NCBI RefSeq assembly: GCF_006345805.1
Contig: NC_043025.1
Coordinates: 1,116,001-1,180,000 of the forward strand
Length of the DNA stretch: 64,000 bases
Direction of reading: 5' to 3'
Origin: Octopus sinensis
Taxonomy: Eukaryota
The notes below the pieces were generated by a model. That model was given only the letters and a program-made list of their open reading frames with translations. It ran no database searches and was not told where the DNA came from. Positions 3,489 through 51,757 of this stretch are shown here, piece by piece; position 1 is the stretch's first letter, and the number at the start of each line of letters is the position of its first letter. A program made the translations under genes and the position numbers.

Positions 3489-3520
<32 letters not shown>

Positions 3521-4345
3521 ATATATATTTGTATGTATGAGTATAAGCGTATGTATGAGTATGTATGAGAAGGAGAAATTATTTTTAAAGAATATCGTTT
3601 ACTTTAATATTTGTGTCTTTGTGAAATAGATTTTGGTTGGATTATGTTCTTCATTATTTTTGTATTAATGGCGGGGGAGAAGGATGGCGTTCCAGTGTCT
3701 TTTGTTTATTTTAACTCATAAAATTATGTGTAATTAAAATTACTTCATCAGTAAATGAAGGATTTAAAAATATCCTTCCTTCCCCCATCCGCATCCACTC
3801 TAATACTCCAATATAAATATGTTTAATAGGTAATTCCAGCCTGAAGAATTCAATGTTATATAATAATGATAAGTCATTAAAGGCATCATTATGAAAACAT
3901 ATTCAAAATTTGGTTATTAATAACCAAATAGTAGAAACCGATTGACAAGATGAGACGTTTCAAATAGATTTTTTTATAATGAACTGCTGTCAAATGTAAA
4001 TAAAGGAAATGTTAACACAGGAGATAATGACTGCGAACGATCTGCTAATTAAAGTGCAATTAACAACATGAGTGATGGTTTAATTAGCAACACTCACTGG
4101 TAAAGAAAAACAGGGATTACCTCCCCTTGCCTTTCAACTCAATCCAAGCATGTTCCATGCATTAAATACCTGCCAGTTGTTACTTGGGGATTCGACAGGA
4201 TTGTTAGCGGATTGCTTAGAATGTATTGAAGTAGTCATTCTGGCATTCTGTGCCCTGAGTTCAAATCGCATCAACGTCAACTTTGCTTTTTCATTCTTTC
4301 AATACAACATCAGGTACTGAAAGGAATACATCATTATATTTTGCA

Positions 4346-4366
4346 CTCTCTCATTCTCTCTCTCTT

Positions 4367-4419
<53 letters not shown>

Positions 4420-4425
4420 TTTTCT
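4346..4425. repeat. (CT)n microsatellite
   Basis: Visible directly; mirrored as (GA)n at about 17495-17597. Confidence 0.9.
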
Positions 4426-4969
4426 TTGAAAGATTTCCACTGTGGTTTGACAGAGAGAGGGGTTAGCTACATCATGTTTAAAATACCCAAATATGAGTGT
4501 GAGGAAGGCGTCCTTATGATTCTGACAACATATGATGACTGAAGACTGGGAATGGATATGAATAGACCCCCTCATCAATAGATATACCCAATACTCAATC
4601 CTATTGAACAACCACAGTTATCTGTGGTAGTAGTAAGTACATCAGATAAAAATGCTATCTGATGCGTCTACTGAAAATCTAAGCAGGGTCCTGTCAAACC
4701 GTTCCTGTCTATTTATTTGCACAAGCTAATAATGAACCAATGAGAGATCGTGTATATGGTGGTTCGGTCTGCTAGATGTAGCAGCCACATCTGCCTCGTA
4801 TCTTAAAACAAGGACATGTGAACTCACATGGTTATATGGTCATTGCAAATAGGAAAAAGACAGGATGGTCACAGCTAGAATGCTTTTGATCTCAGGCCTT
4901 CGCAGTCAGGGTTGACCAAGGGCTAAACAGCACATTTTATTATTAGTATTGTTGTTGTTATTGTTGTTA

Positions 4970-5159
4970 AGGTGACGGAAATGTGAGCACATCAGGCAAA
5001 ACGCTTAGTAGCATTTCTTCTGACTTTACATTCCAAATTCTGATTACCATGAAGCTGACTTTGCCTTTCATCCTGTTAGGGTCAGTAAAATAGGTACCAG
5101 TTGAGTACTGGGGTTGATTAATGGACTATATATTCCACTTTACCAAAATTATTTTTATC

Positions 5160-5194
<35 letters not shown>

Positions 5195-5408
5195 TATGGC
5201 GGCATGTTGGCAGAAACATTAGCACATTGGACAAAATGCATAGCAGCATTTTATTCACCTTTATGTTCTGAGTTCAAATTCCACAAAGGTAGACTTTGAC
5301 TTTCATCCTTTCAGGGTCAATAAATTAACTATCAGTGAAACACTGGGGTCATTGTAATTGACTAATCATCCTTCCCCAAATTTCAGGCCTTCTGCCTTTA
5401 GTAGAAGT
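4970..5408 (+). mobile_element. Two old tRNA-derived SINE copies with the GCCTTTCATCC...GGGTC..TAAA..AGTACCAG central domain (Meta/MESC-like)
   Basis: Diverged matches to the intact copy at 62746-62978. Mirrored at about 16515-16950. Confidence 0.7.
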
Positions 5409-5460
5409 TATTATCATTATTAATATTATTATTATTATTATTATATTATTATTATCATCA

Positions 5461-5545
<85 letters not shown>

Positions 5546-5547
5546 CC

Positions 5548-5599
<52 letters not shown>

Positions 5600-5638
5600 C
5601 ATCATTATTATTATCATTATTATTATTATTGTTATTAC
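5409..5638. repeat. (ATT)n microsatellite
   Basis: Visible directly. Confidence 0.95.
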
Positions 5639-8044: not shown

Positions 8045-9060
8045 TTGCCCATTTAAAAATGGTTTCAGTTTATCAATAAATTTTTTCTCTCTACGTTTCT
8101 CTCGCCTTGTCTTCAGTTGTGTAGACCACAAGTTGCCAGTGGTCGGTTAAAGGGATCATCTGGCCGACATCAGGATCTCTTATTTACTGTTGGAGCACAC
8201 GTGACCGTTCCACTAGTGCATTCCAAGTCTGGCCAACGTATATCTCTTCAGAATTCTGGCATTTGATGCAGTAAATTAAATTCTGCTTTTGCAGTTCATA
8301 TTTACATTTGCAAATATTCTTCCGTTTATTTTTTGCCAATATTGACCGATATGTATGAACTGACATGTCCCACATCGATTATCATTGTACTTAGACACAA
8401 TGAATGATTCGTATTGTTGCTAAGATCACACTTTGCCTTTATTAAATGTTTCAAGTCTTTCGACTGTCTTTTACTTAGAGCCATTACTCCATCCGTGATT
8501 ATATCTTCTAATCATTACTTTGAATAATGATCGGCAAGTTTGATACACTTTTGTATGGGTATTTCTATATCAAGCTGTACACCATTTTATATGAGTAGAG
8601 AGGGATATTTTTGCTTGGGTAGAGATTCTTTTAGTTTTGTTAGGCTTTTGTCTCTGATTCTCACATCCTCCACAAACGTACACATTTTCTCGGCTAGGTT
8701 GTATGGGATATTGCGTTTTGTATATGTTGGATAGTAAAATTTGAAGTTCAGGTATTGAACTTTAAAGGTTATTTTATCTGTTTTGGTGACACAATTCGTG
8801 ACACCAAAATATCTTTAGAATTGCCAAAGCAAACTTGACGATCGTTGTTCAAAGTAATGAATTGAAGAATAATATATATATTGATTTAGCTTCCAGACAT
8901 CTTTTCCGGACACAGTGTTTGTTATCATGAGACCCCTTATTGCACACAAACGTAGTAATTATGCTCGTCTCTTTTGGTTTGCTAAAGCTTTATCTTTCTA
9001 TAGCATTTGGTCAGTTCTTGCTTCAGCCTGCTTCTTCATTGAAGCGGAGGTCTCCAATGA
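8045..9060 (-). mobile_element. Degenerate Penelope-like element (RT remnant plus GIY-YIG endonuclease)
   Basis: Minus-strand translations KQNLIYCIKCQNSEEIYVGQT (GIY-YIG), KRNIPYNLA (PLE RT thumb region) and REKKFIDKLKPFLN (typical PLE C-terminus). Confidence 0.75.
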
Positions 9061-13054: not shown

Positions 13055-13154
13055 NNNNNNNNNNNNNNNNNNNNNNNNNNNNNNNNNNNNNNNNNNNNNN
13101 NNNNNNNNNNNNNNNNNNNNNNNNNNNNNNNNNNNNNNNNNNNNNNNNNNNNNN
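13055..13154. other. Assembly gap (100 N)
   Basis: Run of N. Confidence 1.
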
Positions 13155-14237: not shown

Positions 14238-16509
<2,272 letters not shown>

Positions 16510-16510
<1 letters not shown>

Positions 16511-19207
16511 TAACTTCTACTAAAGGCAAAAGGCCTGAAATTTGGGGAAGGATGATTAGTCAATTACAATGACCCCAGTGTTTCACTGATAGTTAATTTA
16601 TTGACCCTGAAAGGATGAAAGTCAAAGTCTACCTTGGTGGAATTTGAACTCAGAACATAAAGGTGAATAAAATGCTGCTAAGCATTTTGTCCAATGTGCT
16701 AATGTTTCTGCCAACTTCCCGCCATAATGATAATGATGATGATGATGATGATGATGATGAAGATAAAAACAATTTTGGTAAAGTGGAATATATAGTCCAT
16801 TAATCAACCCCAGTACTCAACTGGTACCTATTTTACTGACCCTAACAGGATGAAAGGCAAAGTCAGCTTCATGGTAATCAGAATTTGGAATGTAAAGTCA
16901 GAAGAAATGCTACTAAGCGTTTTGCCTGATGTGCTCATATTTCCGTCACCTTAACAACAGTAACAACAACAATACTAATAATAAAATGTGCTGTTTAGCC
17001 CTTGGTCAACCCTGACTGCGCAGGCCTGAGATCAAAAGCATTCTAGCTGTGACCATCCTGTCTTTTTCCTATTGCAATGACATATAACCATGTGAGTTCA
17101 CATGTCCTTGTTTTAAGATACGAGGCAGATGTGGCTGCTACATCTAACAGACCTAACCACCACATACACGATCTCTCATTGGTTCATTATTAGCTTGTGC
17201 AAATAAATAGACAGGAACAGTTTGACAGGACCCTGCTTAGATTTTCAGTAGACGCATCAGATAGCATTTTTATCTGATGTACTTACTACTACCACAGATA
17301 ACTGTGGTTGTTCAATAGGATTGAGTATTGGGTATATCTATTGATGAGGGGGTCTATTCATATCCATTCCCTGTCTTCAGTCATCATATGTTGTCAGAAT
17401 CATAAGGATGCCTTCCTCACACTCATATTTGGGTATTTTAAACATGATGTAGCTAACCCCTCTCTCTGTCAAACCACAGTGGAAATCTTTCAAGGAAAGA
17501 TAGAGAGAGAGAGAAAAAAAGAAAGAGAGAGTGAGAGAGAGAAAGAGAGAGAGAGAGAAAGAGAAAGAGAGAGAGAAAGAGAGAGAGAATGAGAGAGTGC
17601 AAAATATAATGATGTATTCCTTTCAGTACCTGATGTTGTATTGAAAGAATGAAAAAGCAAAGTTGACGTTGATGGGATTTGAACTCAGGGCACAGAATGC
17701 CAGAATGACTACTTCAATACATTCTAAGCAATCCGCTAACAATCCTGTCGAATCCCCAAGTAACAACTGGCAGGTATTTAATGCATGGAACATGCTTGGA
17801 TGGAGTTGAAAGGCAAGGGGAGGTAATCCCTGTTTTTCTTTACCAGTGAGTGTTGCTAACTAAACCATCACCCATGTTGCTAATTGCGCTTTAATTAGCA
17901 GATCGTTCGCAGTCATTATCTCCTGTGTTAACATTTCCTTTATTTACATTTGACAGCAGTTCATTATAAAAAAATCTATTTGAAATGTCTCATCTTGTCA
18001 ATCGGTTTCTACTATTTGGTTATTAATAACCAAATTTTGAATATGTTTTCATAATGATGCCTTTAATGGACTTATGTCTGCAAGTTTATTTGAAGTATGA
18101 TAATTTTTTTTGTTTTTATTCCAGTTTGTGAATTTGTTTCATATTAAAATTTTCCATGATGTCACTACGATTTACCCCCTTAATACATTTTGTTTGATTT
18201 TTAAATTTAAAAATTTAAAACAAGATAAAAAAATTTAAAACAAGATAAACAGTTTTCATTAGGAGCAGTGTTATATATTTTTTAATATAGAAATGAGAAA
18301 TTTAAAAGCAAATATTTGAACAGCATTGTAAAAAACAACAACATTGTGTAATTCCTTCTGTCAAATATAATTCTTCAGAAAAGAACAAGCATTATCAATG
18401 TATTCTGTTTTTAATTTAATTATTTCTTCTCAATTCAATTTAGCTGTTTTCAAATTATTTCAGAGATTGCACTTGTGTAGATAATGCAACACTTAAGGGA
18501 CATTGATAATTGAACAAGACAAGTTTACATATTTTCAGTTAATAATCTCATTACTTAATTTCAACAGGAATAATCCTTTACAAGAGTCTTCCCCATGACC
18601 ACCACCTCTCCTCCCGCTCATCCTTCCACACCTTCTCTTCAGGCTAAAAAATTATTCTCAATTTTCAGTTTTGCAGGAAGCAAACGAATGTATCTGCCAA
18701 TAATTTCCCAAACATATTTTTGATATTGTTGAGCAAACAGACAACTGACTAAAATCATTATTATTATTATTATTATATAACATATTGAATTCTTCAGGCT
18801 GGAATTACCTATAAAAGATATTTATATTGGAGTATTAGAGTGGATGGGGATGGGGGGAAGGAAGGATATTTTTAAATCCTTCATTTACTGATGAAGTAAT
18901 TTTAATTACACATAATTTTATGAGTTAAAATAAACAAAAGACACTGGAACGCCATCCTTCTCCCCCGCCATTAATACAAAGATAACGAAGAACATAATCC
19001 AACCAACATCTATTTCACAAAGACACAAATATTAAAGTAAACAATATTCTTGAAAAAAAATTTCTCCTTCTCATACATACTCATACATACGCTTATACTC
19101 ATACATACAAATATATATATACATGTATATATATATATATATATATGCATACATACATGTATATATACATAAATATATACATATATACATAAATATATAC
19201 ATGTATG

Positions 19208-19245
<38 letters not shown>

Positions 19246-19328
19246 TATGCATGTATATATATATAGATATATATATATACATACATACATATATACATAA
19301 ATACATATATACATACATATATACATAC

Positions 19329-19417
<89 letters not shown>

Positions 19418-19525
19418 CATAGTTATATGCATGCATATATATATAGATATATATAGATATATACATACATACATATATACATACATATATACATACATAT
19501 ATACATACATGTGTATATATATATT

Positions 19526-19581
<56 letters not shown>

Positions 19582-22540
19582 ACTTAGAATAACTTAGAAA
19601 GGTTTTGGCCAGTATTGGCCCAGGCCATGTCTAACTTAATAGCACCACCTGGCGAAGTCTTTCACTTCAGGATTTGGGCACCAAGGCCCATTCGAGCAGA
19701 CAGTTATTGTTTGCGGAGACATATCTTCGTGTGGATGGTTTGTCCGGGACTGTTGGAAGGAATTTGTCCAAAGACTTCTTGAATTTTGTGTGGTCAGTTT
19801 CTGTTTTGACGTGTCCTGGTGTAATGTTGAAGAGAGCGGTTCCAATTGAGATGAAATGATTGTGCCGTATTGTTGAGATTTTTGTTGTGGACGGATGGCA
19901 CGTGGTCCAAGCCTTGGATGTATTTTGAAGCTGATGCCAACATCATTCGGACAGTGCTGATGGAATATTTTCCACATCATACAGATAATGTAGCGTTCAC
20001 GGCGTCGTTGGAGTGAAAACAGTTTCAGCTTCTCTAGTCTACCCCAGTAGTCAAGGTCTGACATGCCATCTACCTTTTTTGTGATTGACCTTTGGGGAGC
20101 TTCAATTCTCATAATATTTTGTTTCGTGTAGGGAGACGAAACAAGGTGGGGGTCGGGCAAAAGTGAAGAAGAGAAGGATAATGGTGTGGGAATCTCTCGA
20201 CTGGAAGGTTCTGAGAATCCAGGAACACATTCTGCGGGCCATGTCAAATTTGCTGCTTATATGTGTAGCCCAGCTTATGTTGCTGTCCACTGTTACTCCC
20301 AAATCTCTGATGTTGTTGGACGCCATGATAATTTCTCCAGAAGGAAGGGAGTATGGGAGTTTCAGAGCGTCATCCCTTCCAAAGTGGATCAGTTCGAATT
20401 TGTCTATGTTTAGCAATATGTTGTTCTTTTCCGCCCATTGGACAACAGCCAGTAGGTCTGACTGAAGACTTATTCGGTCATCCACGCCATTGATGACCTT
20501 CTGGAGCTTGGAATCATCAGCGAAGGTTCTGATGTTACTGTGTTTGATGGTGTCAGTAATATCATTTATGTAGATGATGAAGAGAAGTGGGCCCAACACC
20601 GTGCCTTGTGGGACACCACTGCTGACTTTGGCTGGGCTGGATTTGACTCCTTCGACTACAACATGTTGCGTTCTGTTAGACAGGAAGCACTTGATCCACT
20701 GTAGCAGCTTTCTAGTGACACCAATATTAGACAGCTTTCTCAAAAGGATCTTATGATCAAACCTGTCAAAGGCCTTGCTGAAATCAAGGTAGATGACATC
20801 AGTGTTGGAACCCTCTCCCAAGGCTCTCAAAACGTCATCAAAATGATGCAGTAGCTGCGTCAAGCAATCCCTTCCATTATGGAATCCATGCTGGTTGGAG
20901 TTCAGCATATCATGACTCTCAAGGAAGTGAGTCATACGCGATCTCAGCACTCTCTCAAATACCATAATGATATGAGAGCTGAGTGAGATTGGACGGTAAT
21001 TCACGGCAAGCGATTTGTTTCCTTTTTTGAAAACTGGGAATACAAACTGGGATAGGTCTTCTGGTATATATCCAGCATCCAGTGAGTTCCGCCACAGATT
21101 GGCTCAAGTGGGTGCAAGTTGGTGTTGACACATCTTCAAGACACAAGCAGGGAACCTATCGGGACCTACTGCTGATTTATGCTTCATTTCCTTTATTGCT
21201 GCTGAGACATCAGTAGCACCAAAGGTTATGTCCGATAAAGTGTATTGGGGAGTAACATCTCTGATACAGACCAGATCAGTCATATCAGGATTGCTGAAAA
21301 CAGAGCAATATTGTTTCTGCAATATCTCTCCCATGGTTTTGGAATTGTCTTGAAGAGTACCATTTTCATCAATCAGAGGGCCAACAGTAGAACCAGTGAC
21401 TGTGTTTTTTAGCAAATGAAAAGAATACTTTGGGATTGAGTTTGATCTTCTCAATGGCCCAGGCCTCTTCAGCTCTTCTCTGACTATTGATGATAGACAT
21501 AATGTTGTTTTGGAGTTTATGTTTTTTAATCTCTAGCGACGAGATGGCAGTCAGTTTGGTGTGTTGCTGTTGACAGTATTTCAGCTCGTTGATTTTTTTT
21601 GTTAATTCTTTTAATTTTCCTGATGAGATATTTTCTATTTCTAGGGATTCGACACTTAGATTTGTTTGCAGATCTTAATGGGGTGTGGTTTGCACATATG
21701 TTCGTAATGGTGTCTACAAATGACTGCCAGGACTTTTTGATGTTAGTGGGTGTGTATGTGTGCGTGAAGGACCAATCGACTTGTGCAAGATCATTATTGA
21801 TCGCTTCCCAGTTTGCATTGTGGAAATCCATAGTGTCAAATGGATGAACAGGAGGGATGACATTTGTTTTGCATTTTGGCCGGTGAAATCTCAGATCACA
21901 GAGAACCATGTCATGGTCGGAGAGTAAAGTTTTCTCCATTGCAATATTGTGGATAGTATCAGTGTGATTGCTGAAAATTAAGTCTAAGACGTTTTTGTGA
22001 CATCTCGTTGGTTCGAGCACCAGTTGGGACAGGAAGAAATCATCCATGAAGTCAAGAAGCGATTCCACTGCCTCCCTGTCAGGGGTTGAGAGAGAAGAAC
22101 CTGGCGGCAGACTGTTTGTAGACCAGTCAACCCCGGGAAGGTTGAAGTCTCCCGTCATTAAAATGTTGTCAGGTTGACACTGCTGAATGAAACACTTTAT
22201 GTGTTGAGGCATTCCTTGAAGCATGGTAGGGGCGTTTGGGGTGGTCTGTAGAGCCCAACTACTGTTAAGTTGTTGGTTTGACTGAATATAGCGACTGCTT
22301 CGCAGTATCCATTGGAAAATATGTTCATAGCTTCTGTTGAGAATGAATCATGAACATAAATGGCAGTCCCACCCTTTCTTCTGCCAGCACGATCAGCACG
22401 AATGGCTTTGAAATTTTTAAATTTCACCTCGGCTTCCAAGTGGAGGTCACTAAGATGGGCTTCAGTGAGGACGAAGAAAGGGATGTGGTTTGGATGGGCA
22501 TCGATCCAGTCCTCCAGGAATTTTATCTTCCATTTTTGAG

Positions 22541-35664: not shown

Positions 35665-35748
35665 TTAAAAGACTTCGTCCTGTTTCGGGTGCACAGTAAA
35701 GGCTCCGCGGCCCCGGAAGTACTTGGACCCTTTATCGAGAGCAGTCGA
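35665..35748 (-). CDS. DCLK: Doublecortin-like kinase, terminal coding exon (STALDKGSKYFRGRGAFTVHPKQDEVF*)
   Basis: T-rich tract plus CAG acceptor, phase 0 and in frame with the previous exon. Resembles the vertebrate DCLK1 TTALDK...FRRR tail. TAA at 35665-35667. Confidence 0.85.
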   Translation of the reverse strand, partial: STALDKGSKYFRGRGAFTVHPKQDEVF

Positions 35749-35851: not shown

Positions 35852-37177
35852 TCGTTTCAGTCATTTCACTGCGGCCATGCTGGAGCACCGCCTTTAGTCG
35901 AGCAAATCGACCCCGGGACTTATTCTTTGTAAGCCCAGTACTTATTCTATCGGTCTCTCTTTGCAGAACCGCTAAGTAACGCTAGGGGGGGGGACAAACA
36001 CAGACACACAAACACAGACACACACACTTATATATATATATACATATATACGACAGGCTTCTTTCAGTTTCCGTCTACCAAATCCACTCACAAGGCTTTA
36101 TATATATATATACTCTTTTACTCTTTTACTTGTTTCAGTCATTTGACAGCGGCCATGCTGGAGCACCGCCTTTAGTCGAGCAAATCGACCCCGGGACTTA
36201 TTCTTTGTTAGCCCAGTACTTATTCTATCGGTCTCTTTTGCCGAACCGCTAAGTGACGGGGACGTAAACACACCAGCATCGACCCTGGGACTTATTCTTT
36301 GTAAGCCCAGTACTTATTCTATCGGTCTCTTTTGCCGAACCGCTAAGTAACGCTAGGGGGGGGACAAACACAGACACACAAACACAGACACACACACTTA
36401 TATATATATATACATATATACGACAGGCTTCTTTCAGTTTCCGTCTACCAAATCCACTCACAAGGCTTTATATATATATATACTCTTTTACTCTTTTACT
36501 TGTTTCAGTCATTTGACAGCGGCCATGCTGGAGCACCGCCTTTAGTCGAGCAAATCGACCCCGGGACTTATTCTTTGTTAGCCCAGTACTTATTCTATCG
36601 GTCTCTTTTGCCGAACCGCTAAGTGACGGGGACGTAAACACACCAGCATCGACCCTGGGACTTATTCTTTGTAAGCCCAGTACTTATTCTATCGGTCTCT
36701 TTTGCCGAACCGCTAAGTGACGGGGACGTAAACACACCAGCATCGACCCTGGGACTTATTCTTTGTAAGTCCAGTACTTATTCTATCGGTCTCTTTTGCC
36801 GAACCGCTAAGTGACGGGGACGTAAACACACCAGCATCGACCCCGGGACTTATTCTTTGTAAGCCCAGTACTTATTCTATCGGTCTCTTTTGCCGAACCG
36901 CTAAGTGACGGGGACGTAAACACACCAGCATCGACCCTGGGACTTATTCTTTGTAAGCCCAGTACTTATTCTATCGGTCTCTTTTGCCGAACCGCTAGGT
37001 GACGGGGACGTAAACACACCAGCATCGACCCTGGGACTTATTCTTTGTAAGCCCAGTACTTATTCTATCGGTCTCTTTTGCCGAACCGCTAAGTGACGGG
37101 GACGTAAACACACCAGCATCGACCCTGGGACTTATTCTTTGTAAGCCCAGTACTTATTCTATCGGTCTCTTTTGCCG
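35852..37177 (-). mobile_element. CORE-type SINE tail array: 360-bp duplication followed by a 94-bp unit repeated about six times
   Basis: CGACCC(C/T)GGGACTTATTCTTTG repeats with 94-bp periodicity from 36650. Confidence 0.9.
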
Positions 37178-37245
37178 CGTATGTACTAGCAAAAATGCGT
37201 GTGTGCAACAAACTAGAAAAAATTGCGAGGATGGTGAAAAGGATA

Positions 37246-37325
37246 ATGTGGGACCTGCGCAGGTTTCAGATTTTTCAAGATATGTCTGCCCACATATACT
37301 TGATCTATCTTCATCAGCCAAACAT
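37246..37325 (-). ncRNA. Type I hammerhead ribozyme with intact core
   Basis: Minus strand ATGTttGG-CTGATGA-AGAT[long stem II with ATATGT/ACATAT]ATCT-GAAA-CCTG cg CAGG-TC-CCACAT. Predicted GUC cleavage between 37252 and 37251. Confidence 0.8.
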
Positions 37326-37916
37326 ATACCACGACAACCTTTCAGATGTTACCACATTAATGCCATTACACTCGACTGAAACGCCGAAACGCTAACAGCA
37401 CGAGAACGGTGAAGAAGTTTCAATAAATTAGTAATGCAATACTAGAGTATTGCTTTCCAGTAAAGAATAGCCCGTGAGGGAAAAATATACAAAGAAGTAA
37501 ATATATGGCACAACGAAGTACCGATATTTACTGGAAATAGCGAACGTAATAATACGACGCTAATGTATAGCTTCACCGCGTATGCAATAGCAAAAATGTT
37601 CTCCCTGGAGGTAAGACAATTTTTTCTAGTTTGTTGCACACACGCATTTTTGCTAGTACATACGCGGTGAAGCTATACATTAGCGTCGTATTATTACGTT
37701 CGCTATTTCCAGTAAATATCGGTACTTCGTTGTGCCATATATTTACTTCTTTGTATATTTTTCCCTCACGGGCTATTCTTTACTGGAAAGAATACTCTAG
37801 TATTGCATTACTAATTTATTGAAACTTCTTCACCGTTCTCGTGCTGTTAGCGTTTCGGCGTTTCAGTCGAGTGTAATGGCATTAATGTGGTAACATCTGA
37901 AAGGTTGTCGTGGTAT

Positions 37917-37996
37917 ATGTTTGGCTGATGAAGATAGATCAAGTATATGTGGGCAGGTATATCTTGAAAAATCTGAAACCGGCGCCGGGCCCATAT
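37917..37996 (+). ncRNA. Second copy of this hammerhead, probably inactive (U16.1 replaced by G)
   Basis: CTGATGA at 37925. GAAA-CCGG cg CCGG-GC keeps stem III palindromic by compensatory changes, but the cleavage triplet is lost. Confidence 0.65.
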
Positions 37997-38175
37997 TATC
38001 CTTTTCTAGGTATTTCATCTTTCAGATGTTCTCCCTGGAGGTAAGACAATTTTTTTCAAGTTTGTTGCACACACGCATTTTTGCTAGTACATACGCGGTG
38101 AAGCTATACATTAGCGTCGTATTATTACGTTCGCTATTTCCAGTAAATATCGGTACTTCATTGTGCCATATATTT

Positions 38176-38247
<72 letters not shown>

Positions 38248-38269
38248 GTGTATGTGTGTGTGTTTGTGT

Positions 38270-38465
38270 GTCTGTGTTTGTTCCCCTAGCATTGCTTGAC
38301 AAACGATGCTGGTTGTTTATGTCCCTGTCACTTAGCGGTTCGGCAAAAGAGACCGATAGAATAAGTACTGGGCTCACAAAGAATAAGTCCCGGGGTCGAG
38401 TTGCTCGATTAAAGGCGGTGCTCCAACATGGCCGCAGTCAAATGACTGAAACAAGTAAAAACAAG
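38270..38465 (+). mobile_element. CORE-type SINE tail
   Basis: CCTAGCATTGCTTGACA...CATGGCCGCAGTCAAATGACTGAAACAAG. Confidence 0.88.
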
Positions 38466-39053: not shown

Positions 39054-39152
39054 TGCTATGACTGCCAAACCATCTTTTGGTTTTTTGGTACGTGTGAAAT
39101 ATTGGTTAAGTTCCTTGGCCACATGTAATTTGTTATCTTTCGCAGTGTCATT
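39054..39152 (-). CDS. DCLK: Doublecortin-like kinase exon (NDTAKDNKLHVAKELNQYFTRTKKPKDGLAVIA)
   Basis: TTTCCTAG acceptor and GTAAGT donor, 99 nt, phase 0-0. Resembles the DCLK1 C-tail segment ending GVSVIA. Confidence 0.85.
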
Positions 39153-39186: not shown

Positions 39187-42100
39187 CTAGCAGTATTGCC
39201 CGGCGTTGCTCGGGTTTGTAAGGGAAATAACCATATAAGCATTTTTAGAGAGTTATAGCCAAAAAATAGCAAGAAAATGCATTAAAAATGGGAAAAAATG
39301 ATGGTAATTTTTTTAAATCGTAGACTTATCGTAGACGCGTGCTAATACCCAGAAGGGCTCGTTATGAAGTATCGCCCGGCGTTGCTCGGGTTTGTAAGGG
39401 AAATAACCATATAAGCATTTTTAGAGAGTTATAGCCAAAAAATAGCAAGAAAATGCATTAAAAATGGGAAAAAATGATGGTAATTTTTTAAAATCGTAGA
39501 CTTATCGTAGACGCGCGCTAATACCCAAAAGGGCTCGTGATGAAGTATCGCCTGGCGTTGCTCGGGTTTGTAAGGGAAATAACCATATAAGCATTTTTAG
39601 AGAGTTATAGCCAAAAAATAGCAAGAAAATGCATTAAAAATGGGAAAAAATGTTGGTAATTTTTTTAAAATCGTAGACTTATCGTAGACGCGCGCTAATA
39701 CCCAGAAGGGCTCGTTATGAAGTATCGCCCGGCGTTGCTCGGGTTTGTAAGGGAAATAACCATATAAGCATTTTTAGAAGGTTATAGCCAAAAAATAGCA
39801 AGAAAATGCATCAAAAATGGGAAAAAATGATGGTAATTTTTTAAAAATCGTAGACTTATCGTAGACGCGCGCTAATACCCAGAAGGGCTCGTTATGAATT
39901 ATCGCCCGGCGTTGCTCGGGTTTGTAAGGGAAATAACCATATAAGCATTTTTAGAGAGTTATATTTCATTTCATTTCATTTGGGTTTGAGTCCATGCTCA
40001 GGCCAAGTCGAAGACTCCACCCTCAGAGTCTGGTGTGGTTGCCAGGTTGGATTCTCTGCTTAATTTTGACATGTGTAGGAGCGAGTTTGAGTCAGTTTGT
40101 GCTCGTTGTGTATATCCTGGGAGATGGGGTTCATCTCTAATGGTGCTTAAGTATCTATCCAGCTGCCTGCAATTTGAATGATTCCACACTGCATCCTGAT
40201 AGATTTCTGACATGTACCGGAATGGAGTTGAACAGTTGTGCTCCTCGAACCAACAGACTTGATTCTCGCAGGGTTTTTGCTGCCTGGCCAGCCTTTTTGT
40301 TGATTGGTGGCAGCTGGCAGCGTCTTCCGTGGCGCAGTGAGTGGTAGGTTTTGATACCAAAGTTTGGCACCTTCTGCTCTATCATTTTCCAAATGTATAT
40401 AATTCGGTATCGCTCAAATCTTCTTTCTATTGAGTACATCCTCAAGGTTTTGAGTCTTTGCCAATAGTCCAGGTCCCTCGTTTCTGAGAAGTATGAGGTA
40501 AAATTTCTTTGGGGCGATTCTATCTTAGATAGTTGGCCCTTTGTTGTTGGTGACCACAACTGAGAACAGTAGTCAATCCTCGGAAGTATCATACTGTTCC
40601 AGAGGGTTTTCATTGTTGAGGTATCTCTTGATTTGAAGGTGCGCAAGATCCACCCGCTGTACTTTCTTGCAGTAAGACAGACTGAGTCAAGGTGTTCTCT
40701 GAATTTTAGGTTGGTTCCCATGTGTATGCCTAAATCTTTCACATACTGTTTTTCCATTATTTGTTGTCCTGATGGGTTTCTGTAGTTTGTTGTATTTTTC
40801 AGATCTTGATCTGTTCCGTAGCGAATTAGTTCAAACTTCTTATCATTGAACAACATGTTGTTTGTTTCCTGCCATTTATATATGGTGGTCAGGTCCTTTT
40901 GTAAAGCCTCTGTATCCACCTCGTCTTTGATTTGTCTCATGACCCTGGTGTCATCAGCAAAGGATGAGACGTTGCTGGTTGTATCTTCATCTATGTCAGA
41001 GATGAGGATGAGAAACAGGATTGGGCCGAGTACTGTACCCTGAGGAACACTGCTGGTCACAGGTGATGGTGTTGAATGGGTTCCATTCACAGTGACTGTT
41101 TGAGTTCTATTTGTAAGGAACTCATGTATCCATGTACCAACTTTTCCTCCTACTCCTAGCTTTCGAAGTTTGTGACCCAGGATGCCATGATCTACCTTGT
41201 CAAATGCCTTGGCAAAGTCGAGGTAGATGACATCTGTGTTGTATCCATTCTCTAGATTTTCTAGGATTTGGTCATGGTGTGCCAGTAGTTGGGAAAGGCA
41301 TGATCTACCTAACCTGAATCCATGTTGGTTGCAATTCATCAGATTGTTGGATTCCAGGAACTCAACCAGTTTTCCACGAACTATTCTTTCGAAGACCTTG
41401 ATAATGTGTGATGTCAGTGAGATTGGTCGGTAGTTCTTTGGTTTTGATTTGCTGTCCCCTTTATGTATTGGAGTTATGTGTGCTTCTTTATATGTATTTG
41501 GTATTTTGCCATTCTCCATAGATTCCCTCCATATCATGTAAAGGGGTTTCGACAATTGTACCTTGCAGTTTTTAAGTATCATGGCATTGAAACCGTCAGG
41601 CCCCGCAGCCGAGTGCATGGAGAGCTTGTCTATGGCTCTTGCTATGTCTTCTGGGTTGAAATCAATGTCGGATAGGGTAGGTTTAGTATGGTCGATATCC
41701 TTGAAGAATTTTCCTGGGTCATGGATCTTCATGGTTTTAGATGGCTCACTGAAGACACTTTCATACTGTTGACCCAACATTTCTGCCATTTCAATAGGGT
41801 TATTCACTACATCCCCATTTTGTCTCTGGAGAGGTCCTATTGTTGACTTGGTGTTCGAGTATTTCTTTGCAAAACTGTAGAAACATTTTAGATTTTTCTT
41901 GATGTTTTCTATGGCTCTCTTTTCTGCATTGTTACGTTCTTCATCATAGTGTTGTTTTAGATTGTCTTCTAATCTGTATATTTGGTCAAGGACTTTCTGT
42001 AATTCATGTTTTGATGTCAGCTTAGATGTTTTGTTTCTTAGTCTTGACCTTTTGCGCATCAGGATCTTTCGCTCCCGTGGTACAGGTTTTTTTGTGGACT

Positions 42101-44841
42101 TGGTTTTCTTTAGAGGAACATTTTTTTCACATATTTCTTCGATCTTGCTTAAGAATTTCTTGTGTTTATCTGGCCCAGTAAGGTAGAGATCCCAGTCAAT
42201 GATTTGTAACTGGTTGTTAATAGTTTCCCAATTTGCCTGGTGATAATCATACCTGCATAGCTTTGGCATGTCCTTTTGTTTAAGAGTTGTGGCATTGGGC
42301 TCATTACCAATGTGTAAATGCATTTCAATAATATTGTGGTCTGAAAGGATTGTTGGGGTTGAGTGAAGGTCAAATAGCGTGTCCTCGTTGTTGGTGAAAA
42401 CCAAGTCGATCGTATTATTATTTCTTGTTGCTTCTGTCATCATTTGTTTGAGGTATAATTTCTCTGTGACTTCCAACAGTTTGGCTGCCTGTATTTGTTC
42501 AGCTTTTGTCCCCAGTTTTAGTATGTGTCCATGTGGCCAGATGATGTTAGGGAAGTTGAAGTCACCAAGGAGGATAATGTCTGGCATTGGACTCGCCATG
42601 TTTCCCAGAATTTGTTGGAGCTTCGTCAGTGGCTCAGTGAAGGATAATGTTGGGCTGTTTGGCGGTCTGTACATTATTGTTACAACTGTATTAAGTTGGA
42701 TGATTTTTATGCACAGCAGGCTGCAGTAGGCATTTGATTCGTTGACAAGTTCTATGCATGCATAGGTGTCATGGATATACATGATAACGCCCCCATGGGA
42801 TCTGCCTTGTCTATCACATCTGAAGATGTTGAATCTATTGATTGTGATTTCGCTGTTGCGGATGTTTTCGTTGAGATGACTTTCAGTAATTCCAATTATT
42901 TTGGAGTTGTTTTCTCTTGCTAATTCTTCCAAGAAAGGGACTTTACACTGTTTTGTTTTCGGATAAAGACCCTGGATATTTGCTGTTATTATGCTTGTTG
43001 TACCGGAAAATAGCCAAAAAATAGCAAGAAAATGCATTAAAAATGGGAAAAAATGATGGTAATTTTTTTAAATCGTAGACTTATCGTAGACGCGCGCTAA
43101 TACCCAGAAGGGCTCGTTATGAAGTATCGCCCGGCGTTGCTCGGGTTTGTAAGGGAAAAAACCATATAAGCATTTTTAGAGAGTTATAGCCAAAAAATAG
43201 CAAGAAAATGCATTAAAAATGGGAAAAAATTATGGTAATTTTTTTAAATCGTAGACTTATCGTAGACGCGCGCTAATACCCAGAAGGGCTCGTTATGAAG
43301 TATCGCCCGGCGTTGCTCGGGTTTGTAAGGGAAATAACCATATAAGCATTTTTAGAGAGTTATAGCGAAAAAATAGCAAGAAAATGCATTAAAAATGGGA
43401 AAAAATGATGGTAAATTTTTTTTAAATCGTAGACTTATCGTAGACTTTTTAGAGAGTTACTTCCCTTATATGATAATGAAAAAATGGATTAAAATGAAAA
43501 AAAATGATGGCAAATTGTTTTAAAAATCGTAGACTCATCGTAGACATTTTTAGAGTGTTACTTCCCTTATATAATAACGAAAAAATGCATTAAAATGAAA
43601 ACAAATGATGGTAAATTATTTTAAAAGTTGTAGACTCATCGTAGACGCGCGCTAATACACAGAAGGGCTCGATATGAATCACGACTATAAGATGCCCGGT
43701 TTTGGTTACACTGCACCGCAAAATGTGGGAGTAGTTAGGAATCTAAATCGTAGGAGACAGAGTCTCACACACACAACATAAATTTCATATATAAAGACTA
43801 GCAGGATCGCCCGGCGTTGCTCTGGTTTGTAAGGGAAATAACTATATAATAATTTTCAGAGAGTTATAGCCAAAAAATAGCAAAAAAATGCATTAAAAAT
43901 GGGAAAAAATTATGGTAATTTTTTTTTTAAATCGTAGAATTATCGTAGACGCGCGCTAATACCCAGAAGGGCTCGATATGAATCACGATTATAAGATACC
44001 CGCTTTTGGTTACACTGCACCGCAAAATGTGGGAGTAGTTAGGAATCTAAATCGTATGAGACAGACAGCACACAACCTCACTTTTATATATAAAGACTAG
44101 CAGTATCGCCCGGCGTTGCTCGGGTTTGTAAGGGAAATAACTATATAAGCATTTTTAGAGAGTTATAGCCAAAAAATAGCAAAAAATGCATTAAAAATGG
44201 GAAAAAATGATGGTAAATTTTTTTTAAATCGTAGACGCGCGCTAATACCCAGAAGGGCTCGATATGAATCACGACTATAAGATACCCGCTTTTGGTTACT
44301 CTGCACCGCAAAATGTGGGAGTAGTTAGGAATCTAAATCGTATGAGACAGACAGCACACAACCTCACTTTCATATATAAAGACTAGCAGTATCGCCCAGC
44401 GTTGCTCGGGTTTGTAAGGGAAATAACCATATAAGCATTTTTAGAGAGTTATAGCCAAAAAATAGCAAGAAAATGCATTAAAAATGGGTAAAAATTATGG
44501 TAATTTTTTTTTAAATCGTAGATTTATCGTAGACGCGTGCTAATACCCAGAAGGGCTCGATATGAATCACGACTATAAGATACCCGGTTTTGGTTAAATT
44601 GCACCGCAAAATGTGGGAGTAGTTAGGAATCTAAATCAGAGGAGACAGAGTCTGACACAACTTCATTTTTATATACAACTAGCAGTATCGCCCGGCGTTG
44701 CTCGGGTTTGTAAGGGAAATAACCATATAAGCATTTTTAGAGAGTTATAGCAAAAAAAATAGCAAAAAAATGCAATAAAAATGGGAAAAAATGATGGTAA
44801 TTTTTTTTTTTAAATCATAGATTTATCGTAGACGCGCGCTA
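39187..44841 (-). mobile_element. Non-autonomous Helitron concatemer with internal ~176-bp tandem repeats
   Basis: Minus-strand 3' end hairpin CCCGAGCAACGCCGGG + ~10 nt + CTAG. 5' end TCTTTATATAT. CTAG|TC junctions at 43797/8, 44096/7 and 44382/3, with a degenerate one at 44678/9. Confidence 0.85.
39964..43009 (-). mobile_element. CR1-group LINE with nearly intact ORF2 (EN plus RT), inserted into the Helitron repeat
   Basis: ORF 40155-43037 has TANIQGL, ITESHL, YRPP, GDFN, SDH, NYRPISLTS, YLDFAKAFD and FADD. (ATGAA)n tail. ATA is duplicated at 39961-39963 and 43010-43012. Confidence 0.96.
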
Positions 44842-45568: not shown

Positions 45569-45649
45569 AGCAACCCAAGGATGGTCCGAAACCTCAGCAG
45601 CGGAGAACCTCATTTCTGGATCTACCTGAAGCATGTGTTCAATCAAGTC
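45569..45649 (-). CDS. DCLK: Doublecortin-like kinase exon, kinase subdomain XI (DLIEHMLQVDPEMRFSAAEVSDHPWVA)
   Basis: TTTTTATACAG acceptor and GTGAGT donor, 81 nt, phase 0-0. Invariant subdomain XI Arg and HPW. Confidence 0.93.
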
Positions 45650-45685
45650 CTGTATAAAAAAAAAGAAAGAAAATATTTCAGATCA

Positions 45686-48600
45686 TTACGTTCTGAGTTC
45701 AAATTCCGCCGAGGTCGACTTTACCTTTCATCATTTCAGGGTCGATAAATAAAGTACCAGTTACGCACTGGGATCGATATAATCGACTTAATCCGTTTGT
45801 CTGTCCTTGTTTGTCTTCTTGGTGTTTAGCCCCTTGTGGGTAGTAAAGAAATAGGTATTTCGTCTGCTGTTACGTCCTGAGTTCAAATTCCGCCGAGGTC
45901 GACTTTACCTTTCATCATTTCAGGGTCGATAAATAAAGTACCAGTTACGCACTGGGGTCGAAAATCGACTTAATCCGTTTGTCTGTCCTTGTTTGTCTTC
46001 TCGGTGTTTAGCCCCTTGTGGGTAGTAAAGAAATAGGTATTTCGTCTGCTGTTACGTCCTGAGTTCAAATTCCGCCGAGGTCGACTTTACCTTTCATCAT
46101 TTCAGGGTCGATAAATAAAGTACCAGTTACGCACTGGGGTCGATATGATCGACTTAATCCGTTTGTCTGTCCATGTTTGACTTCTCGGTGTTTAGCCCCT
46201 TGTGGGTAGTAAAGAAATAGGTATTTCGTCTGCTGTTACGTCCTGAGTTCAAATTCCGCCGAGGTCGACTTACCTTTCATCATTTCAGGGTCGATAAATA
46301 AAGTACCAGTTACGCACTGGGGTCGATAAAATCGACTTAATCCGTTTGTCTGTCCTTGTTTGTCTTCTCGGTGTTTAGCCCCTTGTGGGTAGTAAAGAAA
46401 TAGGTATTTCGTCTGCTGTTACGTCCTGAGTTCAAATTCCGCCGAGGTCGACTTTACCTTTCATCATTTCAGGGTCGATAAATAAAGTACCAGTTACGCA
46501 CTGGGGTCGATATAATCGACTTAATCCGTTTGTCTGTCCTTGTTTGACTTCTCGGTGTTTAGCCCCTTGTGGGTAGTAAAGAAATAGGTATTTCGTCTGC
46601 TGTTACGTCCTGAGTTCAAATTCCGCCGAGGTCGACTTTACCTTTCATCATTTCAGGGTCGATAAATAAAGTACCAGTTACGCACTGGGGTCGATAAAAT
46701 CGACTTAATCTGTTTGTCTGTCCTTGTTTGTCTTCTCGGTGTTTAGCCCTTGTGGGTAGTAAAGAAATAGGTATTTCGTCTGCTGTTACGTTCTGAGTTC
46801 AAATTCCGCCGAGGTCGACTTTACCTTTCATCATTTCAGGGTCGATAAATAAAGTACCAGTTACGCACTGGGGTCGATATAATCGACTTAATCCGTTTGT
46901 CTGTCCTTGTTTGTCTTCTCGGTGTTTAGCCCCTGTGGGTAGTAAAGTAAAGAAATAGGTATTTCGTTCTGTGTACGTCCTGAGTTCAAATTACGCCGAG
47001 GTCGACTTTACCTTTCATCATTTCGGGGTCGATAAATAAAGTACCAGATACGCACTGGGGTCGATAAAATAGACTTAATCCGTTGTCTGTCCTTGTTTGT
47101 CTCTCGGTGTTTAGCCCCTTGTGGGTAGTAAGAAATAGGTATTTCGTCTGCTGTTACGTCCTGAGTTCAAATTCCGCCGAGGTCGACTTTACCTTTCATC
47201 GTTTCAGGGTCGATAAATAAATTACCAGTTACGCACTGGGGTCGATAAAATCGACTTAATCCGTTTGTCTGTCCTTGTTTGTCTTCTCGGTGTTTAGCCC
47301 CTTGTGGGTAGTAAAGAAATAGGTATTTCGTCTGCTGTTACGTCCTGAGTTCAAATTCCGCCGAGGTCGACTTTACCTTTCATCATTTCAGGGTCGATAA
47401 ATAAAGTACCAGTTACGCACTGGGGTCGATATAATCGACTTAATCCGTTTGTCTGTCCTTGTTTGTCTTCTCGGTGTTTAGCCCCTTGTGGGTAGTAAAG
47501 AAATAGGTATTTCATCTGCTGTTACGTCCTGAGTTCAAATTCCGCGCGAGGTCGACTTTACCTTTCATCATTTCAGGGTCGATAAATAAAGTACCAGTAC
47601 GCACTGGGGTCGATAAAATCGACTTAATCCGTTGTTGTCCTTGTTTGTCTTCTCGGTGTTTAGCCCCTTGTGGGTAGTAAAGAAATAGGTATTTCTCTGC
47701 TGTTACGTCCTGAGTTCAAATTCCGCCGAGGTCGACTTACCTTTCATCATTTCGGTGTCGATAAATAAAGTACCAGTTACGCACTGGGGTCGATAAAATC
47801 GACTTAATCCGTTTGTCTGTCCTTGTTTGTCTTCTCGGTGTTTAGCCCCTTGTGGGTAGTAAAGAAATAGGTATTTCGTTGCTGTTACGTTCTGAGTTCA
47901 AATTCCGCCGAGGTCGACTTTACCTTTCATCATTTCAGGGTCGATAAATAAAGTACCAGTTACGCACTGGGGTCGATAAATCGAATTAATCCGTTGTCTG
48001 TCCTTGTTTGTCTTCTCGGTGTTTAGCCCTTGGGGGGTAGTAAAGAAATAGGTATTCGTCTGCTGTTACGTCCTGAGTTCAAATTCCGCCGAGGTCGACT
48101 TACCTTTCATCATTTCAGGGTCGATAAATAAAGTACCAGTTACGCACTGGGGTCGATATGATCGACTTAATCCGTTTGTCTGTCCTTGTTGACTTCTCGG
48201 TGTTTAGCCCCTTGTGTGGGTAGTAAAGAAATAGGTATTCGTCTGCTGTTACGTCCTGAGTTCAAATTCCGCCGAGGTCGACTTTACCTTTCATCATTCA
48301 GGGTCGATAAATAAAGTACCAGTTACGCACTGGGGTCGATAAAAGATCGACTTAATCTGTTGTCTGTCCTGGTTTGTCTTCTCGGTGTTTAGCCCTTGGT
48401 GGTAGGAAAGAAATAGGTATTCGTCTGCTGTTACGTTCTGAGTTCAAATTCCGCCGAGGTCGACTTTACTTTCATCATTCAGGGTCGATAAATAAAGTAC
48501 CAGTTACGCACTGGGGTCGATATAATCGAATTAATCCGTTTGTCTGTCCTTGTTTGTCTTCTCGGTTTAGCCCTTGTGGGTAGTAAAGAAATAGGTATTT

Positions 48601-51530
48601 CGTCTGCTGTTACGTCCTGAGTTCAAATTCCGCCGAGGTCGACTTTACCTTTCATCATTTCGGGGTCGATAAATAAAGTACCAGTTACGCACTGGGGTCG
48701 ATAAAATCGACTTAATCCGTTTGTCTGTCCTTGTTTGTCTTCTCGGTGTTTAGCCCCTTGTGGGTAGTAAAGAAATAGGTATTTCGTCTGCTGTTACGTC
48801 CTGAGTTCAAATTCCGCCGAGGTCGACTTTACCTTTCATCATTTCGGGGTCGATAAATAAAGTACCAGTTACGCACTGGGGTCGATAAAATCGACTTAAT
48901 CCGTTTGTCTGTCCTTGTTTGTCTTCTCGGTGTTTAGCCCCTTGTGGGTAGTAAAGAAATAGGTATTTCGTCGGCTGTTACGTTCTGAGTTCAAATTCCG
49001 CCGAGGTCGACTTTACCTTTCATCATTTCAGGGTCGATAAATAAAGTACCAGTTACGCACTGGGGTCGATATAATCGACTTAATCCGTTTGTCTGTCCTT
49101 GTTTGTCTTCTCGGTGTTTAGCCCCTTGTGGGTAGTAAAGAAATAGGTATTTCGTCTGCTGTTACGTCCTGAGTTCAAATTCCGCCGAGGTCAACTTTAC
49201 CTTTCATCATTTCAGGGTCGATAAATAAAGTACCAGTTACGCACTGGGGTCGATATAATCGACTTAATCCGTTTGTCTGTCCTTGTTTGTCTTCTCGGTG
49301 TTTAGCCCCCTTGTGTGGGTAGTAAAGAAATAGGTATTTCGTCTGCTGTTACGTCCTGAGTTCAAATTCCGCCGAGGTCGACTTTACCTTTCATCATTTC
49401 AGGGTCGATAAATAAAGTACCAGTTACGCACTGGGGTCGATAAAATCGACTTAATCCGTTTGTCTGTCCTTGTTTGTCTTCTCGGTGTTTAGCCCTTGTG
49501 GGTAGTAAAGAAATAGGTATTTCGTCTGCTGTTACGTCCTGAGTTCAAATTCCGCCGAGGTCGACTTTACCTTTCATCATTTCGGTGTCGATAAATAAAG
49601 TACCAGTTACGCACTGGGGTCGATAAAATCGACTTAATCCGTTTGTCTGTCCTTGTTTGTCTTCTCGGTGTTTAGCCCCTTGTGGGTAGTAAAGAAATAG
49701 GTATTTCGTCTGCTGTTACGTTCTGAGTTCAAATTCCGCCGAGGTCGACTTTACCTTTCATCATTTCAGGGTCGATAAAAAAAGTACCAGTTACGCACTG
49801 GGGTCGATATAATCGACTTAATCCGTTTGTCTGTCCTTGTTTGTCTTCTCGGTGTTTAGCCCCTTGTGGGTAGTAAAGAAATAGGTATTTCGTCTGCTGT
49901 TACGTCCTGAGTTCAAATTCCGCCGAGGTCGACTTTACCTTTCATCATTTCGGGGTCGATAAATAAAGTACCAGTTACGCACTGGGGTCGATAAAATCGA
50001 CTTAATCCGTTTGTCTGTCCTTGTTTGTCTTCTCGGTGTTTAGCCCCTTGTGGGTAGTAAAGAAATAGGTATTTCGTCTGCTGTTACGTCCTGAGTTCAA
50101 ATTCCGCCGAGGTCGACTTTACCTTTCATCATTTCAGGGTCGATAAATAAATTACCAGTTACGCACTGGGGTCGATAAAATCGACTTAATCCGTTTGTCT
50201 GTCCTTGTTTGTCTTCTCGGTGTTTAGCCCCTTGTGGGTAGTAAAGAAATAGGTATTTCGTCTGCTGTTACGTCCTGAGTTCAAATTCCGGTGAGGTCGA
50301 CTTACTTTCATCATTCAGGGTCGATAAATAAAGTACCAGTTACGCACTGGGGTCGATAAAATCGACTTAATCCGTTTGTCTGTCCTTGTTGTCTTCTCGG
50401 TGTTTAGCCCCTGTGGGTAGTAAAGAAATAGGTATTTCGTCTGCTGTTACGTCCTGAGTTCAAATTCCGCCGAGGTCGACTTTACCTTTCATCATTTCGC
50501 GGGGTCGATAAATAAAGTACCAGTTACGCACTGGGGTCGATAAAATCGACTTAATCCGTTTGTCTGTCCTTGTTTGTCTTCTCGGTGTTAGCCCCTTGTG
50601 GGTAGTAAAGAAATAGGTATTTCGTCTGCTGTTACGTTCTGAGTTCAAATTCCGCGAGGTCGACTTTACCTTCATCATTTCAGGGTCGATAAATAAAGTA
50701 CCAGTTACGCACTGGGGTCGATATAATCGACTTAATCCGTTTGTCTGTCCTTGTTTGTCTTCTCGGTGTTTAGCCCCTTGTGGGTAGTAAAGAAATAGGT
50801 ATTTCGTCTGCTGTTACGTCCTGAGTTCAAAATCCGCCGAGGTCGACTTTACTTTCATCATTTCGGGGTCGATAAATAAAGTACCAGTTACGCACTGGGG
50901 TCGATAAAATCGACTTAATCCGTTTGTCTGTCCTTGTTTGTCTTCTCGGTGTTTAGCCCCTTGTGGGTAGTAAAGAAATAGGTATTTCGTCTGCTGTTAC
51001 GTCCTGAGTTCAAATTCCGCCGAGGTCGACTTTACCTTTCATCATTTCAGGGTCGATAAATAAAGTACCAGTTACGCACTGGGGTCGATATAATCGACTT
51101 AATCCGTTTGTCTGTCCTTGTTTGTCTTCTCGGTGTTTAGCCCCTTGTGGGTAGTAAAGAAATAGGTATTTCGTCTGCTGTTACATTCTGAGTTCAAATT
51201 CCGCCGAGGTCAACTTTGCCTTTCATCATTTCGTGGTCGATAAATAAAGTACCAGTACGCACTGGGGTCGATAAAATCGACTTAATCCGTTTGTCTGTCC
51301 TTGTTTGTCTTCTCGGTGTTTAGCCCCTTGTGGGTAGTAAAGAAATAGGTATTTCGTCTGCTGTTACGTTCTGAGTTTAAATTCCGCCGAGGTCGACTTT
51401 ACCTTTCATCCTTTCGTGGTCGATAAATAAAGTACCAGTCACGCACAGGAGTCAATATAATCGAATTAATCCCTTTGTCTGTCCTTGTTTGTCCCCTCTG
51501 GGTTTAGCCCTTGTGGGCAATAAAGAAATA
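45686..51530 (+). repeat. SINE-derived satellite: about 31-32 head-less ~185-bp units of the Meta/MESC-domain SINE
   Basis: Unit GTATTTCGTCTGC...GAGTTCAAATTCCGCCGAGG...AAAGAAATAG corresponds to the intact SINE at 62746-62978 minus its A-box 5' end. Confidence 0.95.
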
Positions 51531-51589
51531 TACATTTATTACACATGGGATATTAATGTCTATCAAGTATACCTAGGCATAGTATAGTC

Positions 51590-51757
51590 GTAGCAGTGGC
51601 TGTGTGGTAAGTAGCTTGCTTACCAACAACATAGTTCCGGGTTCAGTCCCAATGCGTGGCACATTGGGCAAGTATATTCACCTATAGCCTTGGGCTGAAC
51701 AAAAACTTGTGAGTGGATTTGGTAGACGGAAACTGAAAGAAACCCGTCGTATATATG

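Follow-up and report, generated by a model that had tools for sequence, protein, structure and literature searches.

The 1-kb feature in the last intron of DCLK, a kinase gene with neuronal roles in vertebrates, is best explained (probability roughly 0.85) as one head-to-head insertion of a multi-copy, ~430-nt hammerhead repeat, likely of Penelope type and likely a passenger of the gene. Copy number, monomer structure, back-to-back pairs, fixed ends, flanks and covariation, all read directly from the sequences, carry this reading.

Anatomy of the insertion

The window, that is, the whole 64,000-nt stretch of Octopus sinensis DNA analysed here, contains five DCLK exons on its − strand, placed with named octopus DCLK proteins. 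Window positions 37596–38025 served as the yardstick for family copies and are numbered m1–m430. The features of the locus are the following.

about 58058–57984, 55164–55066, 45649–45569, 39152–39054 and 35748–35665, − strand: DCLK exons
39054..39152, − strand: DCLK penultimate exon (NDTAK...AVIA)
35665..35748, − strand: DCLK last coding exon (STALDK...DEVF-stop), matched in alignment to the K692/Arg-rich part of the autoinhibitory tail of human DCLK1
36554..37177, + strand: 94-bp tandem array of 6.6 copies, an unrelated dispersed repeat that abuts the eroded element end
37178..37598, − strand: sense arm, about one monomer (m50–m411, then m22–m72), stopping against the 94-bp array with 3-bp microhomology
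37226..37235, − strand: 10-nt filler in place of 40 family bases, 3′ of the sense ribozyme
37241..37329, − strand: type I hammerhead motif with extended stem II and 12-nt palindromic stem III (C3 37317, C17 37252)
37596..37598, no strand: head-to-head junction with 3-bp overlap (hairpin loop 37599–37644)
37596..38181, + strand: opposite arm of 1.36 monomers, a partial tandem (m1–430 plus m1–155) ending in (TC)n(TA)n
37914..38002, + strand: second hammerhead motif, CCGG subfamily, with a private U16.1-to-G change at 37989
38179..38281, + strand: (TC)n(TA)n(TG)n microsatellite, the likely insertion target

Motif inspection revealed a complete type I hammerhead core on the − strand, the strand of the DCLK pre-mRNA, and the exon positions on that strand place the element in the last intron (39053–35749), ~1.8 kb from its 5′ splice site and ~1.5 kb from its 3′ splice site. 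The CUGANGA, GAAA and UH core elements come with three helices: stem II is AGAU/AUCU with an 11-bp inner extension, followed by GAAA; stem III is the 12-nt palindrome ACCUGCGCAGGU; and stem I is short (3 bp, a bulge and 3 bp). C3 lies within CUGAUGA, and the predicted cut falls at 37252/37251 on the − strand. Core, helices and exon map thus confirm the intact-looking hammerhead that a first-pass annotation had reported on the sense strand of this intron, with cleavage as a prediction. The Rfam search of the window gave 0 matches at the gathering score, the isolated 100-nt hammerhead folds no better than shuffled sequences (z −0.41), and its minimum free energy structure lacks stem III. A chance motif was rejected, since an exact 27-mer of the element has 61 matches in the genome and 0 in the control.

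The opposite arm is transcribed first in DCLK pre-mRNA, as antisense. Positions 37645–38006 pair with 37598–37236 (363 nt, 8 mismatches, 1 gap), and beyond the internal deletion another 51 bp (37175–37225 with about 38047–38098) pair as well, so that the ~349-bp arm described earlier is indeed made first and can pair with the whole ribozyme, but is longer than proposed. The + strand copy has ACCGGCGCCGGG as stem III. The sense arm at the DCLK locus is decayed: the filler was swapped in and the arm stops at m72, the left end of the insertion being eroded. The bases lost from it comprise a 3′ splice-site-like sequence, a 15-nt ATG exon and a 5′ splice-site-like stretch, and include the 3′ strand of the helix enclosing the ribozyme. 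The filler junction occurs at 10 places in the genome (G000), all of them DCLK 3′ paralogues, and no other match to the filler was found among the loci examined. The insertion contains no long ORF, and hence not the reverse transcriptase (RT) and GIY-YIG domains of an autonomous Penelope-like element. Among the matches listed, the locus-specific junction is crossed without mismatch by contigs of two runs labelled as other organisms, X7 (organism B) and X12 (organism D); this, together with the presence of the sense motif beside all 9 assembled last-exon copies, indicates that the insertion has persisted, a point against the preferred reading.

A multi-copy family of ~430-nt hammerhead repeats

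A 191-nt query returned 603 candidate matches in the genome, and three exact patterns of the repeat gave 61, 430 and 131 matches (the 430 with a 23-mer), against 0, 0 and 1 in the controls. Family copies are 5′-truncated pieces of a ~430-nt non-coding monomer, arranged singly, in tandem or head to head. For architecture we used 96 loci outside the DCLK segment (14 loci within it were left out), which resolved into 72 distinct insertions, a pattern-selected sample that may keep a few duplicates. Head-to-head pairs make up 39 of the 72, the hammerhead region is present on both strands in 14, and 10 contain a full internal monomer. A stricter count, in which the first 100 of the 430 matches formed 76 clusters, yielded 9 head-to-head, 0 tail-to-tail and 9 tandem arrangements. 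The 3′ ends (n = 112) fall at m150–165 (67) or m220–226 (41), with 4 elsewhere, which defines two fixed ends ~60 nt apart; 36 of the 39 head-to-head pairs combine one short with one tailed end, and 91 of the 112 ends are flanked by TA-rich sequence. A MITE or another DNA transposon was rejected because the repeat has two fixed 3′ ends with variable 5′ truncation, and its ends are not terminal inverted repeats.

Tandem arrays of 2–4 monomers also occur in the family (431–433 nt, GC 0.38), and the predicted circle folds of four natural cut-to-cut monomers of this length were more stable than expected in all four cases (z −3.6 to −5.7). The best-conserved part of the monomer, across window positions 38008–38050 (+) and family copies, is a stretch with the look of an acceptor, a 15-nt ATG exon and a donor, and in tandem this stretch would turn each unit into a ~415-nt intron holding the ribozyme and a microexon. 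The putative splice-site-like stretch near the ribozyme is conserved across subfamilies.

Our literature search on octopus, mollusc and cephalopod hammerheads, retrozymes and Penelope elements, which covered publications as distinct from the repeat libraries Dfam and Repbase, found no account of the family. Passages of the O. vulgaris repeat paper (PMC13282606) report 190 Penelope-like families and make no mention of hammerheads, and the repeat library of that study may already hold the family sequence. The family is likely new, as a set of non-autonomous Penelope-type/retrozyme elements of a known kind whose parentage we infer and whose cleavage is predicted.

Covariation within the family

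In an alignment of 57 distinct rows (a further row, with an insertion, was set aside), 94.8% of the cells in the hammerhead helices are paired, and the A15.1–U16.1 pair is kept in 55 rows. Cells with double changes number 51, against 19.0 in shuffles, a control that ignores relatedness and is to be read in the light of few subfamily events. Stem II is of the AU type in 48 rows and of the GC type in 8, whereas stem III divides evenly between GC (27) and UA (27) rows; a third subfamily has a 10-nt palindromic stem III. Judged from these alignments, the hammerhead looks to have been selected at the level of the element. Since both stem III types are split across family rows, the stem III change between the two arms, earlier read as compensatory, is a subfamily difference, and a mixed-subfamily head-to-head pair is also found elsewhere (L152). 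The palindromic stem III is far more stable as a duplex than as a hairpin (−23.5 vs −1.8 kcal/mol), which fits a predicted dimeric cleavage.

Relation to Penelope-like elements and retrozymes

The Penelope-like systems compared are those of Cervera & de la Pena 2014 (PMC4209133), Craig et al. 2021 (PMC8557442) and Frangieh et al. 2024 (PMC11167929), as described in passages of these papers. Penelope-like elements show partial tandems, an inverted 5′-truncated copy, a one-sided 30–40 bp tail and a microsatellite bias (PMC8557442), and the octopus repeat shares all four: the DCLK locus itself has both a partial tandem and an inverted 5′-truncated copy, and the one-end tail and TA-rich flanks prevail at the frequencies given above, although the octopus tail is longer (~60 nt). 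With the hammerheads of Penelope-like pseudo-LTRs it has in common the type I core, an extra base before stem II, a long stem II, a short stem I, a palindromic stem III and an ATG near the cut site, and also the opposite-strand hammerhead pairs a few hundred bp apart (100–700 bp in PMC4209133, where the variants had low activity in vitro). Cleavage by a related Penelope hammerhead depended on protein, and its cut ends were absent in RNA-seq (PMC11167929). The octopus stem III palindrome, at 10–12 nt, is longer than in minimal hammerheads and, unlike autonomous Penelope-like elements, the octopus repeat is without an RT/GIY-YIG ORF.

Metazoan non-LTR retrozymes, for which we drew on passages of Cervera & de la Pena 2020 (PMC7229834) and Li et al. 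2026 (10.64898/2026.07.22.740005), likewise consist of non-coding, low-GC tandem monomers (38% in octopus) with one type I hammerhead each and form a stable circle, in our case a predicted one. The octopus monomer is larger (430–433 nt vs ~300 bp in PMC7229834), and its copies are mostly scattered through the genome as partial or inverted insertions that bear a Penelope-type tail, unlike the long arrays of retrozymes. The octopus hammerhead resembles the Penelope variants, and the RNA cycle of the family is predicted from its sequence.

A profile search with PF01541 gave 147 matches among 5029 candidates. At 66 GIY-YIG loci drawn from these matches, some of them overlapping, neither blastn nor nhmmer detected similarity to the repeat; the mobilising enzyme is therefore proposed by analogy. 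RT + GIY-YIG elements of this genome do carry hammerhead motifs, with opposite-strand pairs at L139 and L214. Distinct hammerhead-like motifs, some with a very long stem II, lie near GIY-YIG Penelope-like ORFs at L136, L139, L142, L147, L202, L204, L208, L212 and L214. Within the window, positions 8139–8870 (−) hold decayed fragments of Penelope-like ORFs, among them a GIY-YIG piece, that are related to the element preserved intact at L139. Three family copies lie beside other Penelope-like pieces:

L191:4326–4560
L189:4290–6400
L055:540–1200

The Penelope-like ORFs at these loci are separate insertions of other families, and a (TA)n tract lies between the family copy and the Penelope-like piece at L189 and L055. 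At L191 the truncated 5′ end of the family copy joins a Penelope-like fragment directly, a junction that is suggestive of a possible template switch and of a lead to the mobilising element.

On the most probable course of events, a Penelope-like reverse transcriptase/endonuclease would copy the repeat into a (TA)n tract, and the ribozyme would work for the element itself: by cleaving tandem transcripts, probably as a dimer formed through its palindromic stem III, it would release ~432-nt monomers, which may be circular. Integration would have produced the inverted arm, with template switching or conversion between subfamily sequences giving the differences between the arms. In DCLK pre-mRNA, the first-made arm would zip onto the emerging ribozyme, leaving it unfolded, and the intron would be spliced out; following insertion, the sense arm presumably lost sequence, and DCLK gained further copies of its entire 3′ segment.

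Predicted masking of the ribozyme in DCLK pre-mRNA

Masking was computed from secondary structure only. The whole insertion forms one predicted hairpin (minimum free energy −734.9 kcal/mol), in which adopting the active fold costs 95.7 kcal/mol, compared with 4.5 kcal/mol for the ribozyme alone and 6.1 kcal/mol in the sense arm and in three arm-less paralogues. The suggestion that the fold-back neutralises the ribozyme is borne out at the level of predicted masking.

Of the DCLK copies, eleven carry the element; both motifs are present in 7, the sense motif alone in 3 and the + motif alone in 1. The loss of U16.1 in the opposite copy, noted earlier, is real, but the change is private to one of 8 + arms; a designed asymmetry was rejected because U16.1 is intact in the other 7 paralogous + motifs. 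The first-pass annotation had also offered, as a simpler reading, that the inversion merely made the insertion tolerable. A tolerated insertion comes closer to what we find, but the inversion itself needs no host-level explanation, because back-to-back pairs are common across the family and the hairpin is thus likely a by-product of transposition.

A more elaborate version, which adds selection to the preferred explanation without replacing it, holds that a pair generated by transposition was kept in a working DCLK only because the fold-back and the loss of the splice-like stretch made it harmless. We regard it as unlikely. The predicted masking is complete, the 40 nt missing from the sense arm are precisely those whose splice-site-like signals might otherwise have led to exonisation, and retrozymes are depleted in Xenopus introns (passages of 10.64898/2026.07.22.740005); yet in 3 of 10 paralogues (the 3 may be dead copies) the sense ribozyme stands unaccompanied by the arm, hammerheads of related Penelope-type elements show poor cleavage on their own (PMC4209133) or depend on protein (PMC11167929), and introns cut by a slow hammerhead still splice, as reported second-hand in a passage of PMC2995048.

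An amplified DCLK 3′ segment

The penultimate exon has 12 matches in the genome and the last exon 9, all 9 beside a sense ribozyme motif, and the kinase exon for residues 401–456 has a single match (C10226). The DCLK 3′ part, from about residue 455, is present in ~9–13 copies, the upstream kinase exon being single. The copies are located as follows.

window 35665–58058, − strand (C29)
C9271, C4560, C9413, C8531, C1649, C13265 and C12682
C172, C1360, C11570, C481, C829 and C5185

Many of these copies carry lesions (a stop, a lost acceptor, indels), and the window copy has Ser for Leu in the EVLDHPW motif. Within 40 kb beyond the window, a stretch with one N gap, we found no upstream kinase exons other than 455–501. 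A search for literature on octopus DCLK amplification gave no title on the subject among the matches listed.

Whether the paralogues are an artefact of assembly, with uncollapsed reads posing as copies, the arm-less ones being errors and the locus single-copy, turns on their internal differences. Of the 12 matches to the penultimate exon, only one lies on a contig of chromosome scale, and several copies have indels typical of unpolished contigs; against this, in the 7 copies that have both exons the distance between these across the last intron differs from copy to copy (7 values, 2.5 to 7.4 kb), the last intron of three further copies contains a LINE, and six partial DCLK C-terminal proteins named O. 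vulgaris are present in the protein collection. We consider an artefact improbable.

In an alignment with human DCLK1 (6KYQ), the last exon falls on the tail, in agreement with its earlier assignment to the autoinhibitory C-tail, and by residue spacing the ALDK lysine would correspond to K692 (as numbered in passages of PMC8686072). Read-through of the penultimate exon (39053–39033, −) gives a short alternative end, VSEKFFK-stop, without the last-exon tail, which is annotated in P0002 and P0003. Spliced DCLK contigs across the last intron were recovered from 2 of 4 presumed-RNA runs (X17 and X19, belonging to two studies; 2272 and 1716 nt), spliced at both ends of the penultimate exon and into the last exon; the contig from run X11 was unspliced and looked genomic, and run X20 gave no cover. 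Over 159 compared bases, the spliced form has 4 differences from the window, among them a Leu in place of the window Ser, and it matches the majority paralogue type, so the window copy is likely not the expressed one; alternatively, the differences may be allelic or between species. RNA editing as their cause was rejected, as none is A-to-G on the transcript strand. Since all 9 last-exon copies adjoin a sense motif, the expressed copy probably carries one too.

Other repeats crowd the window. A 970-codon LINE frame with endonuclease and reverse transcriptase domains (40158–43067, −) sits in the intron before the penultimate exon, sense to DCLK, and tandem arrays built from pieces of dispersed repeats occupy DCLK introns at 45641–51624, 36554–37177 and 35906–36722 (184 bp, 94 bp and 370 bp, respectively). 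Positions 1167–5606 and 16315–20910 form a large inverted duplication, 95–97% complementary in its main blocks, with a 100-N gap between its halves (13055–13154).

An improbable regulatory role in DCLK

The first-pass annotation had envisaged a ribozyme/antisense switch unmasked by ADAR editing or transcription kinetics. Editing of such a hairpin is plausible in octopus, but five As of the ribozyme core are themselves editable, and their editing would kill catalysis. Simulated editing left the fold masked: with 10–50% of the As outside the ribozyme read as G, the gap was still 85.5–96.2 kcal/mol (6 trials), and with pairing forbidden for 30% or all 293 of them it was 70.6 and 35.3 kcal/mol, respectively. 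Kinetics would favour masking, because the arm is transcribed first.

It is extremely improbable, for these reasons, that editing or transcription speed unmasks the ribozyme and that a cut before the last exon lowers or truncates DCLK. The geometry does fit, with the arm first and the ribozyme ahead of the 3′ splice site; the K692-equivalent tail lies in the last exon, the locus-specific junction recurs in runs of other organisms, and the tuning of Cpeb3 by an intronic ribozyme (PMC10919898) makes such control possible in principle. But the same arrangement recurs at unrelated loci, pairs being the usual form of the family (39/72), the presence of the arm varies among paralogues, and a cut pre-mRNA would be without a poly(A) tail, so that no tail-less kinase is expected. 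Like Cpeb3 and the amniote intronic hammerheads (PMC7229834), the octopus intron has a putative self-cleaving motif on its sense strand; those ribozymes are described (PMC10919898; PMC7229834) as few-copy and conserved, unlike the octopus motif, which belongs to a set of young mobile copies numbering in the hundreds, is partly decayed and differs between paralogues. Where a Cpeb3-type ribozyme would be single-copy and conserved in an invariant context, we found hundreds of copies, a variable arm and a decayed sense arm. The related idea of a dosage switch, in which the mask, through its gain or loss, would decide which amplified copies (7 with it, 3 without) cleave their pre-mRNA, is very improbable; if true, it would amount to a transposon-derived ribozyme/antisense dosage switch on a neuronal kinase, cutting before the autoinhibitory tail exon.

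Significance

As a DCLK switch, the insertion most likely does not matter, and the value of the family is modest. The masked and unmasked DCLK paralogues are nevertheless a natural pair for asking whether an intronic hammerhead affects splicing, and dimeric cleavage could be studied on the naturally occurring hammerheads of the family, whose palindromic stem III comes in lengths of 10 and 12 nt. In the octopus family, a single element combines monomers of retrozyme type with the tail and inverted copy that mark Penelope insertions, and this combined anatomy lends direct anatomical support to the proposal that Penelope machinery moves retrozymes.
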